Assembly: GCA_049275655.1 (NCBI GenBank)
Contig: JBASUY010000020.1
Coordinates: 2,651 to 66,650, forward strand
Source of the DNA: Candidatus Omnitrophota bacterium
GTDB lineage: Bacteria > Omnitrophota > Gorgyraeia > Gygaellales > Profunditerraquicolaceae
Reading direction: 5' to 3'
DNA: 64,000 bases
Shown here: positions 2,750 through 57,040 of the stretch, piece after piece
Layout of the letters: the number at the start of each line of letters is the position of its first letter
Numbering within the stretch: position 1 is the stretch's first letter
Program-made: the position numbers and the translations under genes
Notes under the pieces: model-generated
What the model was told of the DNA's origin: nothing
The model's input: only the letters and a program-made list of their open reading frames with translations
Database searches by the model: none

Positions 2750-3616
2750 TTAAAAATAAATAATAGCGCTACAAGCAATAATCCACAATACAATGCTTAA
2801 TTGCAGCGGTATATCGGATAATAGAATACGAATCGGATCATCATCTTTCTTAACTTTGTGAATAAGATAAAGATAGCGAAAGATACCATAATAGACAAAG
2901 GGCATAGTAAGTAGTAGTTTTGTAGTTCCAAATTCTCTTATTGTCCGAATATCCACAGTATAAAGCATATAAACTATTGTTATAGATGACGTAATTACCG
3001 CTATCATTTGATCTATGAAATAGATATCATATTCCACAAGTATAGAACGGTGCCGGATAGCTTTCTCTTGAAATAGATCTAATTCCTGCCGCCTTTTATT
3101 GAAACCTAAAAACATAGCAAGTAGGGCTATCATTATTATAACCCAGTAAGATAACTTAACTTCTGCCACTACGCCTCCAGATAAAATACGTAATAGGTAA
3201 AAAAAGGCTAAGCTAAAAACATCAATAATAACTACTTTTTTCAATATCTTAGAATAAAAAAAATTAGATATAGAATAAACGATAATTATATACCCAAAAT
3301 AGATATTTAGAATAAAAGATAAAGTAATAGAGAAAACTAATAATATAAAAGCTGCGGTTAAAGCTAACCTTATATTAACTTTACCTGAAGCTATAGGCCG
3401 TAAAGATTTAATTGGATGGCGCTTGTCTTTTTCTATATCTAAGATGTCATTTATAAGATACGCAGCACTAGCAGATAAGGAAAAAAGACAAAAGGCAAAA
3501 AATACTTTTAAATTTGCTGGGAAAATTAGCAATCTCTTCCCAAAGATTAAAGGAATAAAGATAAAAGTATTTTTAATCCACTGCTTAGGACGCAAAGAAA
3601 GGAATAAGTGCTTCAT
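2750..3616 (-). CDS. UbiA-family prenyltransferase, decaprenyl-phosphate phosphoribosyltransferase (DPPR synthase)-like
   Basis: 288 aa polytopic membrane protein with the NDILDIEKDKRHP motif (NDxxDxxxD of UbiA/DPPR synthases). Confidence 0.7.
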   Translation of the reverse strand: MKHLFLSLRPKQWIKNTFIFIPLIFGKRLLIFPANLKVFFAFCLFSLSASAAYLINDILDIEKDKRHPIKSLRPIASGKVNIRLALTAAFILLVFSITLSFILNIYFGYIIIVYSISNFFYSKILKKVVIIDVFSLAFFYLLRILSGGVVAEVKLSYWVIIMIALLAMFLGFNKRRQELDLFQEKAIRHRSILVEYDIYFIDQMIAVITSSITIVYMLYTVDIRTIREFGTTKLLLTMPFVYYGIFRYLYLIHKVKKDDDPIRILLSDIPLQLSIVLWIIACSAIIYF

Positions 3617-30153: not shown

Positions 30154-30225
30154 AGCGGGAGACGGGGTTCGAACCCGCGACGACTTGCTTGGAAGGCAAG
30201 TGTTCTACCACTGAACTACTCCCGC
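30154..30225 (-). tRNA. tRNA-Gly (anticodon UCC)
   Basis: Manual fold. GCGGGAG acceptor, anticodon loop CTTCCAA, T-arm GGGTTCGAACCC. No encoded CCA. Confidence 0.85.
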
Positions 30226-30230
30226 AATAA

Positions 30231-30316
30231 TGGTGGGCAGGAGAGGATTCGAACCTCTGAAGCACAGGTGCAGCAGATTTACAGTCTGCCCCCTTTGGCC
30301 ACTTGGGTACCTGCCC
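30231..30316 (-). tRNA. tRNA-Tyr (anticodon GUA), class II with long variable arm, CCA encoded
   Basis: GGGCAGG acceptor, anticodon loop TGTAAAT, long variable arm, T-arm GGTTCGAATCC, 3' ACCA. Confidence 0.85.
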
Positions 30317-30326
30317 ATTTATTTAA

Positions 30327-30399
30327 AGCCGGCGAGAGGAATCGGACCCCCGACCCGCTGTTTACAAAACAGCTGCTCTACCAACTGAGCTACGCCGGC
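30327..30399 (-). tRNA. tRNA-Thr (anticodon UGU)
   Basis: GCCGGCG acceptor, D-arm TAGCTCAGTTGGTAGAGC, anticodon loop TTTGTAA. The T-arm is atypical (GGGGG-TCCGATT-CCTCT with two G-U pairs). Confidence 0.75.
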
Positions 30400-37377: not shown

Positions 37378-37454
37378 TTGGTGGCGGCGACTGGATTTAA
37401 ACCAGTGACAAATCGGGTATGAGCCGACTACTCTATCAGGCTGAGTTACGCCGC
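37378..37454 (-). tRNA. tRNA with CAU anticodon (elongator Met or Ile2/lysidine tRNA), CCA encoded
   Basis: Acceptor GGCGGCG/CGCCGCC with a G1-C72 pair, so not an initiator. Anticodon loop CTCATAC. D-loop AGCCTGATA lacks GG. T-loop TTTAAAT has U at position 56. Confidence 0.75.
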
Positions 37455-37463
37455 CAAAAAAGA

Positions 37464-53026: not shown

Positions 53027-55798
53027 TTAAAATCTGCGGCGATAATATACGCGGACTATGTGTGCGGTATCTATTGTTAGCAGCGCTCCACCCGTAGGAT
53101 CATAGAGCCTTCCGATAGAGCTTGAGTTTCCTTCTCCATACTGGATAGTAAACTCATCATCCTTAGTAGGCATATATCTAAGCTCTGTAAAAATATTGTG
53201 GTGACCGGTTGTTTTAGAGTTCCCATCTCTAACTAAAAGGGGATTCTTCCATAGGGAATAAGTGTATTTAAAACAGAGCCCTAACTTATCTGTAGGCTCA
53301 TAAACCATCTGTAAGCCAAAGTGGTTCATATTATCTGAGTTTTGCCCTGCCATCTTAAACTCATTATAAGTATAATCAAGGTAGATATTGAATTTTTCTA
53401 AAGGAGAGATATCTAAGCCTGCTTTGTAAATATTATAGAACGGATAAGGCGCCTGTGGAAAGAATTCTTGATCATAAAGAAACCTGCCCCAACCGCGATA
53501 CGTATTGCCATATTCAGAATAAGTTCTCCAGAACCCCGCGTCATTAAATACGCCGTTAGGAAAATTACCATAAGCTAAATAATAGTCATTCGTCCTTTCC
53601 CAGACAATATTTGCCTTTAACCACTCTACAAAAGCGTATTCTAACCCTATAGAACCTGTTTTAATGCTTGGATCAGCTCCATCAGGGACAACTTTATTAG
53701 TTAAACCTATATCAGTGTCAATATCAAAATTAAAAGGGTCTATCTCTCCTTTGGTCTTTGGTAGGTCATGATAAAGGAGTAAACCTTTGAGGGTAAGTTT
53801 TTCAAATGGCTTAAACATTATCTCATCACGCACAACAGTCTCAACATACTTGCCATTATTCTTATGCACATTACGTACATCAAAAAGATTTGAGAAGGTA
53901 TCTTCATAAAAAGTCTCAAATCTGAAACCAATAGTACTTCTATCTTTATCTATCCCATCTCCTATACGCGTAGCGTCAAGCTCATCTTGATTAACATAGG
54001 CAGAGCTTAAACCTGGGGTAAAATACCCAAAGTTCTTTCTAAAAGAGATATGCCTTGACCAAAAATCATCATCCCGCGTATCACGGTAATTAGAAAGAGG
54101 GGCATCAAAACCCCTATCCATCCTGGCAATAAAAAATTTACTCTTTGCCATAAATGATTCGTCTTTAGCTATTTTAGATTCATTATAAGCATCAGTAAGA
54201 ACTATAAGCTCTTTTTGAGGATAACGGTTAATAAGCGTAAAATAATAAGCATTTCCGCGTGCCTTAGTCTTGTATTGGGAGTCAAGCTGATCATAGTAAG
54301 ATTGCGACCTTAAGACTTCTGCTTGAGCCTTAACTCCTTCAATAATCTCATAGCTTAAATCCATCCCACCTACATAATTTGTGCTATCAACCTTGTTTTT
54401 ATCATTAATATTTAATCCGGTGCGTGTAGTAAATGTAGCCCCTAAAGATAGATTATCCGCAGCAAAGTGCTTTAACCTACTTGCAGTAATATAATTATCC
54501 ACCTCTTCATAATCCTGCCAGAGATCTTTAGGTGTGGCTACAGTAGTAGTAAATAACGTCTTCTCTGCTGAGCCAAGCTCAAAAGAAAACCCCCTTAAAG
54601 CAGTAAGGTATTTTCCTGTGCTATCCCGTATTGTAGAATAGGTATCATCCCAGATACCCTTAGTATAATCCAATGCACCCGGGTCTGAGTTATATCTACC
54701 CGGAGAATACCTTTTAAGCCAGGGACTGGGTGCCCACCATTTATGGTGATTAGTTATACGCAAAGGATCGTCTGAAGTAAATGCCTGATCCTGATAAGCA
54801 ATCGGGAAAACCCGGAATTTCACTCCGGCATCCTCATTCATATAATCAAGCCAAAATTCCCTAACCGGTTGAAACCTACGATGAATTTTCGTTTCAGGAA
54901 TTACAAAAATGTTGCCAAAAGAAGAGGTAACTGTAGTAGGAAGCACCCTTCCGTTAACTACCTTTATTTCAGGAAGGTTAAATACATCCCCGCTAATTGA
55001 GGTAAAAACCCTATCATTTAAAGTATAGCCTGTATTCGACCAATACCTTAATTCAACATCAGCAGTATCCCCCCATATCCCCCCGGTAATATTAAATTTG
55101 CTGCTCTTACCAGTAAAACTCCAAGGATCAATGGTTATGTTACTATGAAAACTAAATCCGGATTTATTCTCTGTATCAAGGTTTATTGAAAGGCTATCAT
55201 AAACCCTGGTATCAAATGTATTCCATCTTTGATTATAAGCCGCATCTGATAAAACGCGCCAGTTCCTTTCATTTAAATCATAGTTAGCGCGCTTCCATAT
55301 AAAATTACCCGGAGACTCAACCCCAAAAGAAAGCATCGCCTCTCCGGTTACACGTATACCGCCTAATAAAAAACCCCTTGTTTTATCTTCAGTTAAAGGT
55401 TCAATTGTATCCTTAGGCTCTAAATCAGAGAATGCCTTCTCCATCGCCTCTTCTTTAGTATGTATATTATTCAAATCTTTGCTATTAGGGACAAGGGCCT
55501 CTTCCTGGGGATGGGTTTGGGGTTCTTTTGGAATATAAGATTGTGGCTTTTGTAATTGGTCCTTATTTTTAAAGATACGGCTTACATATTCTTTGGCAGT
55601 TTTATTTTCAGGGTCTGCAGCAAGGACTTTTTGAAACTCAGATAAGGCATCATCGTATTTTTCAAGGTTATAAAGCTCTACCCCTAATTCACACAAATAT
55701 TCTACTGCCAAAGTCTCTGCTATAGATAAAGACGGAATTAAAAAAAATAAAGCGCCTAAAAGCATAAGCGCCATAACAAGAATATATTTATTTTTCAT
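53027..55798 (-). CDS. Putative outer-membrane beta-barrel protein with N-terminal TPR-like hairpin
   Basis: 923 aa. Signal peptide MKNKYILVMALMLLGALFFLIPSLSIA. One TPR-like helical pair (LYNLEKYDDALSEFQKVLAADPEN), an acidic linker, then ~800 aa of aromatic, Gly, Asn and Asp-rich beta-type sequence ending in a C-terminal Phe (VRVYYRRRF). Confidence 0.5.
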   Translation of the reverse strand: MKNKYILVMALMLLGALFFLIPSLSIAETLAVEYLCELGVELYNLEKYDDALSEFQKVLAADPENKTAKEYVSRIFKNKDQLQKPQSYIPKEPQTHPQEEALVPNSKDLNNIHTKEEAMEKAFSDLEPKDTIEPLTEDKTRGFLLGGIRVTGEAMLSFGVESPGNFIWKRANYDLNERNWRVLSDAAYNQRWNTFDTRVYDSLSINLDTENKSGFSFHSNITIDPWSFTGKSSKFNITGGIWGDTADVELRYWSNTGYTLNDRVFTSISGDVFNLPEIKVVNGRVLPTTVTSSFGNIFVIPETKIHRRFQPVREFWLDYMNEDAGVKFRVFPIAYQDQAFTSDDPLRITNHHKWWAPSPWLKRYSPGRYNSDPGALDYTKGIWDDTYSTIRDSTGKYLTALRGFSFELGSAEKTLFTTTVATPKDLWQDYEEVDNYITASRLKHFAADNLSLGATFTTRTGLNINDKNKVDSTNYVGGMDLSYEIIEGVKAQAEVLRSQSYYDQLDSQYKTKARGNAYYFTLINRYPQKELIVLTDAYNESKIAKDESFMAKSKFFIARMDRGFDAPLSNYRDTRDDDFWSRHISFRKNFGYFTPGLSSAYVNQDELDATRIGDGIDKDRSTIGFRFETFYEDTFSNLFDVRNVHKNNGKYVETVVRDEIMFKPFEKLTLKGLLLYHDLPKTKGEIDPFNFDIDTDIGLTNKVVPDGADPSIKTGSIGLEYAFVEWLKANIVWERTNDYYLAYGNFPNGVFNDAGFWRTYSEYGNTYRGWGRFLYDQEFFPQAPYPFYNIYKAGLDISPLEKFNIYLDYTYNEFKMAGQNSDNMNHFGLQMVYEPTDKLGLCFKYTYSLWKNPLLVRDGNSKTTGHHNIFTELRYMPTKDDEFTIQYGEGNSSSIGRLYDPTGGALLTIDTAHIVRVYYRRRF

Positions 55799-55807
55799 AA
55801 TATTTTT

Positions 55808-55835
55808 ATTATATATAGGTAAAGCCCTTTGTCAA
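55808..55835 (-). promoter_or_regulatory. Consensus sigma70 promoter directly abutting the OMP gene start (leaderless configuration)
   Basis: Minus strand: TTGACA (55835..55830), 16 nt, TATAAT (55813..55808), 9 nt, ATG at 55798. Confidence 0.5.
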
Positions 55836-55857
55836 GATTTTTTTGCTCTTAAAAAAA

Positions 55858-56187
55858 TTAAACTACTTCCTGAGGAGATGAAACGAGGGTTATCTTTAAG
55901 GTGTGCATAAAGGCTATTAAAAAAAGCCTACCACGGTTTACCGCAAGTACGCTTCCTTTTAGCTTACAAAAAAACTTTTGTCTCTGCTCTTTTGTATCCT
56001 GCTCTTTTAAAACACAAAGAGATGGTTTTGGTTTTTCTATATCCGGATTAGAGACCTCTTTGACTATATATATAAAATGGCGACGGATAACGCTGCGCAC
56101 CCCTTCTTTTTCAGTAATCTCTGAAGAAGATACCACCCTTTTTCTACGGTCGTTAGAGGTTAAGTTTTTAAATAAGAGATTGCGCAT
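55858..56187 (-). CDS. Hypothetical small basic protein (109 aa from the internal ATG). Coding status uncertain.
   Basis: ATG at 56187 preceded by GAAAGGG plus a 4-5 nt spacer. The product MRNLLFKNLTSNDRRKRVV... is Lys/Arg-rich with no recognisable domain. It lies in the long intergenic island. Confidence 0.25.
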   Translation of the reverse strand: MRNLLFKNLTSNDRRKRVVSSSEITEKEGVRSVIRRHFIYIVKEVSNPDIEKPKPSLCVLKEQDTKEQRQKFFCKLKGSVLAVNRGRLFLIAFMHTLKITLVSSPQEVV

Positions 56188-56195
56188 TTTACCCT

Positions 56196-56339
56196 TTCTA
56201 CGATGACCCCCTAAAACCGGGTTGCCGTTTAACCCTACCAAAACTAGGCAACCCGGCGTTTTCCCCTTATGGCTGGCGGGGTCTTAAAACTTTTTTAAAT
56301 TGTAAAAGAAGTAGTTATAAAAATATTTTTTGCTCTTTT
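56196..56339 (-). ncRNA. Candidate structured RNA / 5' leader transcribed from the 56347-56375 promoter
   Basis: Minus-strand transcript with an AT-rich 5' part followed by a GC-rich nested hairpin: GACCCC-GCCAGCCATAA-GGGG, then GCCGGGTTGCC-N20-GGCAACCCGG-TTTT, then GGGGTC. The GACCCC/GGGGTC segments can pair either locally or across the whole element. Confidence 0.3.
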
Positions 56340-56346
56340 CAATTAA

Positions 56347-56375
56347 AGTATAAATTACTAAAGGTAGCCTTTCAA
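56347..56375 (-). promoter_or_regulatory. Near-consensus sigma70 promoter in the intergenic island
   Basis: Minus strand: TTGAAA (56375..56370), 17 nt, TATACT (56352..56347). Confidence 0.5.
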
Positions 56376-56407
56376 GGGGTTTAGAGCAAAAAAAGAAAGC
56401 GTTTGCT

Positions 56408-57040
56408 TTATCTTTTAAAAGATAGGCGCGGCTCTTCGCCTTTTATCAGGCGTTTAAGGTTAGATTTGTGACGGAGAATTATAAAAACCGAGAGAAGAAA
56501 ACTAATTATAATTATTGATAAAGGTAGTTTTAATATAAGAATAAAAAGAGGAAAAGTTAGGGCTGCTAAGATAGATGAGAGAGATATTATTCTAAAGAAG
56601 ATAAAACTAACCACCCAAATTAAAACTATTAAGGCAAGCGCTATCTTTAAGCCTTGAATTTTAAAACTAAGGGCAAGTAAAACCCCCAAGGTAGTAGCAA
56701 CCCCTTTACCTCCTTTAAACTTTAAAAAAAGTGTCCAATTATGTCCACAAATAGCACAAAACCCTATGATAATCAATAAGTTATGTTCCTGAATAAAACT
56801 TATCCTATCAGAAATTAAAGTTCCTAAAAAGAATACAGGTAAGAATCCTTTTAAGATATCAAGGAATAATACACTAAAACCCCACCCCTTCCCTAAAATC
56901 CTCAAAGCATTGGTGGCGCCTACATTTCCTGAGCCTGTTTTACGGATATCAATTCCTTTTATAATGCGGACGAATAAATAGGCAGTTGGAATAGACCCGA
57001 TAATATAACTAACGATTATTAGAAGAATTATCAGGAGCAT
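56408..57040 (-). CDS. plsY: Glycerol-3-phosphate acyltransferase PlsY
   Basis: IIGSIPTAYL...GSGNVGATNALR are the PlsY motifs. Start set at the internal MLLIILL. Confidence 0.85.
   Translation of the reverse strand: MLLIILLIIVSYIIGSIPTAYLFVRIIKGIDIRKTGSGNVGATNALRILGKGWGFSVLFLDILKGFLPVFFLGTLISDRISFIQEHNLLIIIGFCAICGHNWTLFLKFKGGKGVATTLGVLLALSFKIQGLKIALALIVLIWVVSFIFFRIISLSSILAALTFPLFILILKLPLSIIIISFLLSVFIILRHKSNLKRLIKGEEPRLSFKR

Follow-up and report, generated by a model that had tools for sequence, protein, structure and literature searches.

A conserved small gene of Omnitrophota preceded by a probable remnant of a GEMM-I riboswitch

The stretch of DNA considered here, called the window, comprises 64,000 nucleotides (nt; 64 kb) from a Candidatus Omnitrophota bacterium (assembly GCA_049275655.1, contig JBASUY010000020.1), and our subject is an island of about 600 nt within it (55799-56407) that separates plsY from a gene for a 923-amino-acid (aa) protein of tetratricopeptide repeat (TPR)/outer-membrane-like type. 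Position 1 is the first letter of the window, and the coordinates of the leader, promoter and gene are those of the minus strand throughout. Read in that direction, plsY (Pfam G3P_acyltransf, E 2e-53) ends at 56408, and an imperfect palindrome, GCAAACGCTTTC, stands immediately past its stop codon at 56406..56395. The palindrome lies 19 nt 5' of the -35 hexamer (56375..56370) of a sigma-70-type promoter, TTGAAA-17-TATACT, whose -10 hexamer is at 56352..56347. The leader begins with an AT-rich module (56340..56284), followed by a small hairpin at 56281..56263, in which CCCC (56281..56278) pairs with GGGG (56266..56263) across the loop GCCAGCCAUAA, and by a large hairpin with an 11-bp stem and a 20-nt loop (56257..56216). 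A UUUU run at 56216..56213 overlaps the final stem base of the large hairpin. Beyond it are a distal GGGGUC (56210..56205), which can pair with GACCCC at 56283..56278, the Shine-Dalgarno region GUAGAAAGGGUA (Shine-Dalgarno-like GAAAGGG, read from the sequence at 56201..56190), and the small gene itself, which encodes 109 aa from an ATG at 56187 (56187..55858). The reading that we favor, at a probability of roughly two in three, is that the island is a single small transcription unit, made up of promoter and palindrome, a leader of about 150 nt and the 109-aa gene, and that the leader is what erosion has left of a GEMM-I riboswitch, a remnant on which selection still acts.

The relatives used for comparison were a sample of 80 loci, one per species, each encoding a relative of the 109-aa protein, while at least 104 genomes have a relative of the gene; counts of genome loci are given out of 81. 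The initial annotation of this DNA had described a near-perfect promoter, and that promoter is indeed there, with 10 of 12 positions matching in a consensus scan and with its hexamers and spacing retained in about 70 orthologous loci. The start of transcription is predicted at about 56340. The palindrome stands 19-20 nt 5' of the -35 hexamer in essentially all of the approximately 70 related loci that have a recognizable promoter (a regular expression matched 58 of 70, and the remaining loci differ by one base), and its family consensus is GAAANCGYTTTC followed by a T run. It is present only once in the window. The palindrome is also found at loci that have no RNA motif of the kind described below and in a distant family member, L201, and an operator-like GAAAACGCTCTC was read by eye 5' of the promoter of another distant member, L203. 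It is probably the site of a transcription factor, centered near -60. As for the surroundings, plsY is immediately upstream of the small gene in about 74 of the 81 loci, and a TPR/outer-membrane-like gene is downstream in about 50. The second promoter of the island, TTGACA-16-TATAAT at 55835..55808 (a 12/12 consensus match), belongs to the 923-aa gene and not to the small gene; an CTTGACAAAGG promoter of this kind is kept in relatives, where it drives either a 923-aa-type gene or a small RNA.

The Lys/Arg-rich open reading frame (ORF) of 109 codons with a plausible Shine-Dalgarno sequence, also part of the initial annotation, is likewise present; its product has 22 Lys and Arg against 11 Asp and Glu, and an isoelectric point (pI) of 10.2. 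A search covering 5.8 billion proteins found 97 relatives with 49-85% identity (E 1e-62 to 1e-20), nearly all of 108-118 aa and all annotated as "hypothetical", and those that carry an organism name are from Candidatus Omnitrophota. The start MR(D/N)LLFKNLTS is near-universal in the alignment of these 97 homologues, and 17 residues are invariant (M1, R2, F6, N8, L9, T10, S11, E23, G29, R36, H37, F38, F72, C74, K77, H95 and L97). The family signature can be written MRDLLFKNLTS..RHF..FFCK.KGS..FMHSLKI, and the window protein shows both the full-length similarity and the invariant residues. Arg2 stays constant although loci differ in its codon, CGC or AGA, and differences at codon positions 1, 2 and 3 number 10, 10 and 34 against the closest relative, L001, and 25, 17 and 61 against L002. 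By these comparisons the ORF at 56187..55858 is a genuine protein-coding gene. The initial annotation had allowed that clear conservation of the protein would point to an ordinary small gene, and such conservation is clear; the object as a whole is of an ordinary kind, a small gene with a structured leader, while neither of its two parts is ordinary. An exhaustive profile search extended the family to 169 clusters at 50% identity, all single-domain and of 100-130 aa, with a 15-residue insertion in the distant clusters, and the 80 genome records with a family member are nearly all titled Omnitrophota or Omnitrophica. The family is uncharacterized and centered on Omnitrophota.

The description of the island as unannotated holds in part; public gene callers had already called the ORF, as a 127-aa product from a TTG at 56241 (P0001, 100% identity; 124 aa in L001). 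That TTG falls within the large hairpin and has no family support, and the alignment places the true start at the ATG at 56187; the gene model is corrected in this sense. A 101-aa antisense ORF on the plus strand (55901..56206) was rejected, having no family hit and lying opposite a gene under codon-level selection. An AlphaFold2 model of the 109-aa protein (pLDDT 84) is all-beta, with five long antiparallel strands, and residues 1-8 are disordered in it despite being the most highly conserved in the family. The protein matched nothing in Pfam (E<=1), NCBIfam or a PDB sequence profile, and Foldseek found no match to the model below E 0.001 in either PDB or BFVD.

The initial annotation had also noted an AT-rich stretch followed by GC-rich nested hairpins, and comparison of the leaders shows how much of this is conserved. 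Most loci carry, just 5' of the gene, the pattern UCCCC(A/G)CCAGCCA...GGGG(AUA)GCCGGGUUGCC-loop-GGCAACCCGGC. A covariance model, R1, built from 35 of the loci finds one copy per locus and always 5' of the gene (57 loci at E<=1e-6, about 62 of 81 at E<=1e-4); its sole significant match in the 64-kb window is at 56287..56208 (50.2 bits, E 2e-11). This core motif consists of the small hairpin, a junction and the large hairpin. The arms of the large hairpin are GCCGGGTTGCC (56257..56247) and GGCAACCCGGT (56226..56216), or GCCGGGUUGCC and GGCAACCCGGU as RNA. Across the relatives 97.4% of the alignment cells are paired and both sides have changed in 8 of the 11 pairs (52 cells), giving a covariation score that was reached by none of 500 shuffles. 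RNAalifold, applied to an independent MAFFT alignment of whole leaders, predicted this helix and no other. The stem with its TTTT that had been picked out at the outset is therefore not only present, with 11 bp, but conserved and covarying. The small hairpin behaves differently in the same comparison: the sequence CCCC(A/G)CCAGCCA..GGGG is nearly invariant across the 57 loci and 88% of the stem is paired, yet covariation is almost absent from the four pairs, with one cell having changes on both sides.

A hairpin of the large type occurs once in the 64 kb, and in none of 100 shuffles; the single occurrence rules out a generic repeated terminator of the genome. Of 120 matches given by a pattern scan of metagenomes, 23 have the gene at 45-250 nt on their 3' side. 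The covariance model rejects the remaining 97, which are therefore taken to be chance hits in unrelated DNA, and this disposes of the idea that the core motif also stands before other genes. Since the motif is present as one copy per locus before the gene, and the gene-less matches are due to chance, it is tied to one gene family. A further hairpin of about 35-45 nt (e.g. AACGCCCAACCAUAAAUGAUUGGUUGGCGUU) was seen at varying positions in the leaders of L034 (about 2925-3000), L025 (about 2940-3000), L053 and L038. In L053 it sits within the loop of the large hairpin (2880-2960), and in L034 it is bounded by a direct repeat, CACCUCUGUGA. Such a hairpin has the look of a small insertion, either mobile or duplicated.

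The ancestry of the core motif emerged from the longer leaders among the relatives. When the relatives were scanned with Rfam at a lax threshold, matches to the clan of cyclic di-GMP (c-di-GMP)-I riboswitches, CL00126 (RF01051, RF03167 for the GGC type and RF03168 for the UAU type), fell exactly on the motif in ten loci with full-length leaders, and weak matches were found besides in L049 and in a partial form, L032. With RF01051 (gathering threshold 35 bits), L048 scored 36.2 bits and so reached the threshold, L192 fell just below it at 33.9, and L024 scored 25.4. With RF03167 (threshold 59) the scores were 36.8 for L190, 32.1 for L187, 30.5 for L008, 30.0 for L188, 24.9 for L153, 22.6 for L111, 22.5 for L049 and 19.7 for L032, and with RF03168 (threshold 65.9) L077 scored 42.1. 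Thirteen leaders have the longer form UUUCUCGA-AAUAGCUAA-(hairpin 1)-GGCGCAAAGCYCAUAGGR-UCCCCACCAGCC..GGGGAUAGCCGGGUUGCCGAAAGAAA. A consensus fold of ten full leaders contains two adjacent hairpins as in GEMM-I, so that the two-hairpin architecture of the c-di-GMP-I riboswitch is found at the orthologous position in the ten full-length relatives. In this fold both sides have changed in six pairs of hairpin 1, and GCAAAGCYC and GGGUUGC pair to form the base of hairpin 2. In 13 relatives hairpin 1 is closed by GC..GC, with a covarying stem and the junction GACGCAAAGC, which in this riboswitch class carries the purines that contact the ligand (G20 side, A47 side). An outer helix joins YUCG at the 5' end to CGAAAG at the 3' end; its U-A to C-G covariation was seen by eye and not counted by a tool. 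Unlike the Rfam consensus, the full relatives carry a conserved ACCAGCCAC loop.

These longer leaders allow the parts of the core motif to be named. The small hairpin aligns in L077 with the "ggucccc..ggggac" stem of the Rfam c-di-GMP-I-UAU model, and this alignment identifies it as the tip of hairpin 2 of a GEMM-I aptamer. The segment GAUAGCCGGGUUGCCGAA is the conserved 3' strand of the aptamer, and it is overlapped by the large hairpin in the full-length relatives; on this layout the large hairpin is a terminator that would compete for the aptamer 3' strand in those relatives, and a former terminator in the window. The alignments thus show the core motif to be homologous to GEMM-I leaders. 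What would the full forms bind? Members of the class that sense cyclic GMP-AMP (cGAMP) carry adenine instead of G20, and the G20A mutation yields an RNA able to bind c-di-GMP and cGAMP alike (PMC6140456). Of the 13 full-length leaders, 11 have A at the equivalent position, a likeness to the GEMM-Ib 3'3'-cGAMP riboswitch, and the ligand of the full forms may therefore be either c-di-GMP or 3'3'-cGAMP. The PilZ and MshEN neighbors discussed below differ from that precedent in pointing to c-di-GMP, and the window copy does not have the position at all.

The AT-rich module is a different matter. It is composed of an A-run/U-run, CUUCUUUUAC and UUUAAAAAAGUUUUAA, with the blocks UAUUUUUUU, CUYUUUUAAG and GUUUAUAAAAGUAUU kept in many loci, and the RNAalifold consensus of the relatives has no conserved structure in it. 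The same module precedes complete aptamers (L024, L044, L077, L187, L190 and L192) and also occurs in L026 and L029, which have no hairpin. It is therefore a separate module and not a replacement for hairpin 1, and the possibility that the AT-rich stretch is an AT-rich version of aptamer hairpin 1 was dropped because the module stands before complete aptamers.

How much of the riboswitch is left in the window? In GEMM-I, the base of hairpin 2 pairs AGCC-N-CGG with CCGGGCU, a region that includes C92. The window has no hairpin 1, no 5' strand of the outer helix, no GNCGCAAAGC junction and no 5' strand of hairpin 2 (AAGCYCAUAGGR); the AT-rich module stands directly before CCCC, with no CGCAAAG present. 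The loop begins with UAGUUU instead of CGAAAG, and there is no upstream CUCG. What remains of hairpin 2 is its 3' strand, GCCGGGUU, and the distal CCCC/GGGG stem. In terms of the c-di-GMP-I riboswitch, the window keeps the UCCCC..GGGGA tip and the 3' strand GCCGGGUUGCC, along with the terminator hairpin that overlaps this strand, and differs in having the junction AAAAC instead of AUA and a U tract of 4 nt. A conserved loop, AGCCACGG, was considered as a substitute for the lost 5' strand (pairing with CCGGGUU) and was ruled out; G-to-A changes in the arm (GCCGGAUU) are uncompensated, and AGUC variants co-occur with GGGUU. The covariance scan suggested in the initial annotation gave no Rfam hit, to this clan or to any other family, in 55600..56600 even at E<=10, and at the gathering threshold the whole window contains four tRNA genes only (30154-30399 and 37382-37455, minus strand). 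The earlier failure to match the region to RNase P, tmRNA, signal recognition particle RNA, 6S RNA or a common riboswitch is borne out by these scans. Ten other core-only loci have no c-di-GMP-I match either. Because the ligand-binding half is missing and Rfam finds nothing, the window copy is probably not a working riboswitch of known kind.

Intermediate forms connect the two extremes: L049 lacks only hairpin 1, and L032, L072 and L099 retain the outer helix. Of the full or partial leaders, 16 of 16 have a U-rich tract after the hairpin, whereas core-only leaders have one in 23 of 62 cases (Fisher p = 4e-6); the U tract has thus been lost together with the 5' domain. The run is UUUU in the window and absent in the closest relative, L001. 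The window hairpin resembles an intrinsic terminator or attenuator in having a GC-rich 11-bp stem followed by U's within a 5' leader. It departs from one in its 20-nt loop, in having four U's, in the conservation of the base of the stem in sequence and not just in pairing, and in the loss of the U tract from most core-only relatives. The full forms are scattered over the protein tree (a weak tree, built from the 109-aa protein), and the core motif also accompanies a protein that is 33% identical to that of the window (L201); the economical reading is therefore that the 5' domain was lost more than once.

Several points weigh against the view that the leader is an eroded riboswitch. The direction of change, loss and not gain of the 5' domain, depends on parsimony and on that weak tree of a 109-aa protein. 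The full relatives match Rfam with marginal scores; one reaches its gathering threshold, and the scores with the GGC and UAU models are far below theirs. Four U's still follow the window hairpin, and some termination may occur there. Furthermore, CCCCRCCAGCCA..GGGG and GCCGG/CCGGC are almost invariant even among species whose proteins have diverged to 50-70% identity. Decay would be expected of a dead riboswitch, and the remnant must therefore have some role.

Taken together, the features suggest the following scheme. The conserved sigma-70 promoter, with its fixed upstream palindrome, would start a leader of about 150 nt before the 109-aa gene, which most Omnitrophota carry just past plsY. 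In the full relatives, bound ligand would hold GAUAGCCGGGUUGCCGAA inside the aptamer; with ligand absent, GAUAGCCGGGUUGCCGAA would pair with GGCAACCCGGC to form a terminator with its U tract, and the ligand would thus turn the gene on. In the lineage of the window, the 5' half of the aptamer would have been deleted, leaving the hairpin 2 tip, its 3' strand and the terminator hairpin, while the U tract was reduced to UUUU. The window copy is thus most likely past canonical cyclic-dinucleotide sensing, and its hairpin would be at most a weak attenuator. The remnant may now help to stabilize the mRNA or provide it with a binding site, with the main control presumably shifted to the promoter and palindrome.

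What else might the conserved core be? One proposal is a protein-binding operator, in which the small basic protein or some other factor binds the conserved loop ACCAGCCA together with the GCCGG-clamped hairpin and thereby adjusts translation or the stability of the mRNA by feedback, the riboswitch remnant having been re-used as an autoregulatory site. The analogy in working would be with the operator hairpin of single-stranded RNA phage coat proteins and with ribosomal-protein leaders, where a gene-specific hairpin likewise precedes a small basic beta-sheet protein. It fits this proposal that the motif stands only before this gene family, that the unpaired loop bases and the stem base are invariant in sequence while the distal stem covaries freely, that the protein is basic (pI 10.2) with a conserved, disordered K/R-rich N-terminus, and that a neighboring small RNA of the relatives has GCCACGG and AAGCCGGAUUG in common with the motif. 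The protein, however, has no RNA-binding domain and no significant structural match, and about 15 loci keep gene, promoter and palindrome but no motif, and we consider the operator unlikely. Another proposal, and a rather improbable one, is that the ~125 nt from the promoter to the large hairpin (about 56340..56213) are a separate small RNA, with the ORF expressed by read-through only. The stable 11-bp hairpin followed by UUUU would suit such an RNA, as would the U-rich tails of 23 of 62 core-only leaders and of all full leaders, and in relatives the neighboring small RNA is truly stand-alone and has a terminator of similar kind. Yet there is no promoter between the hairpin and the ORF, the ORF starts 16-30 nt past the hairpin in most loci with the Shine-Dalgarno sequence in between, the closest relative, L001, has no U run, and the motif is never found without the gene. 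Of the readings weighed here we give this one the least credence.

The initial annotation itself favored a switch between mutually exclusive helices, in which GACCCC would have the nearby GGGG and the distal GGGGTC as alternative partners. In a fuller version, the window core would still sense a ligand as a minimal aptamer of small hairpin, junction and large hairpin, the distal helix serving to hide the ribosome-binding region. The window sequence does allow both pairings, and the distal one, GGGGTC with GACCCC at 56283..56278, is part of the minimum-free-energy fold of the leader, along with a helix that covers the Shine-Dalgarno sequence (GUAGAAAGGGUA with UACUUCUUUUAC at 56313..56302). There is also one compensatory change relative to L001, from G-C to A-U, and the nucleotides predicted to be unpaired are strongly conserved. 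The distal pairing is nevertheless specific to a lineage, being confined to the window and L001; across the 57 loci the best helix that the 5' strand can form with the sequence past the hairpin averages 5.53 pairs against 5.65 +/- 0.13 in permuted sets. This permutation test, together with the RNAalifold prediction of the large hairpin alone, rules out the distal helix as a conserved switch. The GUAGAAAGGGUA/UACUUCUUUUAC pairing is unsupported by the consensus fold of the relatives, and the whole-leader fold is not exceptional (z-score -0.96). Some leaders (such as L020, L035 and L059) are so short that only about 15-20 nt precede the motif and 16 nt follow it, and a motif before one gene family only would be unusual for a metabolite sensor. 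A47 is among the nucleotides needed in the GEMM-I pocket, as in the Vc2 structures. The cyclic-dinucleotide pocket further needs G20 and the three-helix junction (PMC6140456), and all three are absent from the window. Continued sensing by the window core thus seems distinctly doubtful. What survives of the riboswitch- or attenuator-like description is a conserved cis-acting RNA of riboswitch ancestry, without the proposed pair of alternative helices. A 12-nt motif that had been reported to occur twice can be located at both places, but it is accounted for at 56202..56192 (CGTAGAAAGGG) by the Shine-Dalgarno region and at 56148..56136 (CGTAGAAAAAGGG) by codons for the conserved DRRKR. Relatives do not keep the pair, and CGTAGAAA..GGG was discarded as a repeated element.

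The genes around the family also speak for the eroded-riboswitch reading. PilZ genes (Pfam, 37-53 bits) adjoin the small gene in nine loci. Single-domain PilZ genes lie downstream in L024 (3340-3645), L044 (3372-3704), L067 (3392-3718) and L037 (3242-3562), and upstream in L032 (2546-2839), L048 (2042-2314), L074 and L079; of the six genome loci that carry a full riboswitch, three have such a gene alongside. In L203 (1415-4988), and also in L204, a distant 125-aa member of the family lies between a divergent GAF-GGDEF gene and a gene for an MshEN/T2SSE ATPase, which in L203 begins 15 nt past the stop of the distant member. The L203 member has a palindrome-like site and a promoter, and no hairpin motif. 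These gene neighbors (PilZ, GGDEF and MshEN) tie the protein family to cyclic-dinucleotide signalling. The window protein resembles PilZ-domain c-di-GMP receptors in being small (PilZ-domain receptors are of about 100 aa), mostly beta, found at the same loci and linked to c-di-GMP, but a PilZ-like identity was ruled out, with no hit to PF07238 in Pfam at E<=1 and an hhalign probability of 0.1% against the neighboring PilZ proteins.

In many relatives a stand-alone small transcription unit, absent from the window, stands just downstream of the small gene. The small RNA was located in L008 (2040-2200), L049 (710-872), L044 (3760-3905) and L024 (3700-3854), and also in L027, L030, L037, L061, L067, L072, L073 and L076. 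Its promoter has the consensus CTTGACAAA(A)GG-17-TATACT, and the RNA, of about 100 nt, reads AAUCCGGCAUUUCCC-(loop with GGAGG)-GGGAAAUGCCACGG..AAGCCGGAUUGAC-loop-GUCARUCCGGCUUUUU, and at its 5' end it has AAUCCGGC, the complement of the 5' arm of the RNA's terminator. The small RNA has GCCACGG and AGCCGGAUUG (AAGCCGGAUUG) in common with the leader motif, and gave no Rfam hit in the relatives. In the window, the equivalent of its promoter (55835..55808) directly drives the 923-aa gene. In L008, L027, L030, L038, L049, L060, L061, L065 and L072, a gene for a secreted protein that begins ...AAFSLSVTPYEGGYDLRF... lies 3' of the small RNA, and in these nine loci it replaces the TPR/outer-membrane-like gene.

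On these comparisons the leader is a conserved, truncated form of the GEMM-I riboswitch that had not been described before and that Rfam 15 does not detect, and the motif supplied here is ready for use as a covariance model. The locus offers a cross-species series of one riboswitch dismantled at a single orthologous position, from full through partial and core-only to absent, in which the U tract disappears along with the sensor half; such series have rarely been documented. It also raises the question of why half an aptamer stays near-invariant once the sensor is gone. One speculative answer, to which we give little weight, is that the half-aptamer and its hairpin form a new RNA element, made by re-use of a GEMM-I riboswitch and read by a protein, most simply the downstream beta-protein, and that with the paralogous small RNA they would make a circuit linking cyclic-dinucleotide signalling to cell-envelope genes. 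If that were true, the 109-aa protein would be a new kind of effector in the c-di-GMP pathway. Apart from that, three independent kinds of context, a GEMM-I-type riboswitch upstream, PilZ neighbors and GGDEF/MshEN neighbors, make the family a candidate c-di-GMP effector. "Missing" effectors of c-di-GMP have been discussed in the field (bioRxiv 10.1101/2024.11.10.622515), and this family of proteins of about 110 aa would be a concrete candidate for them.

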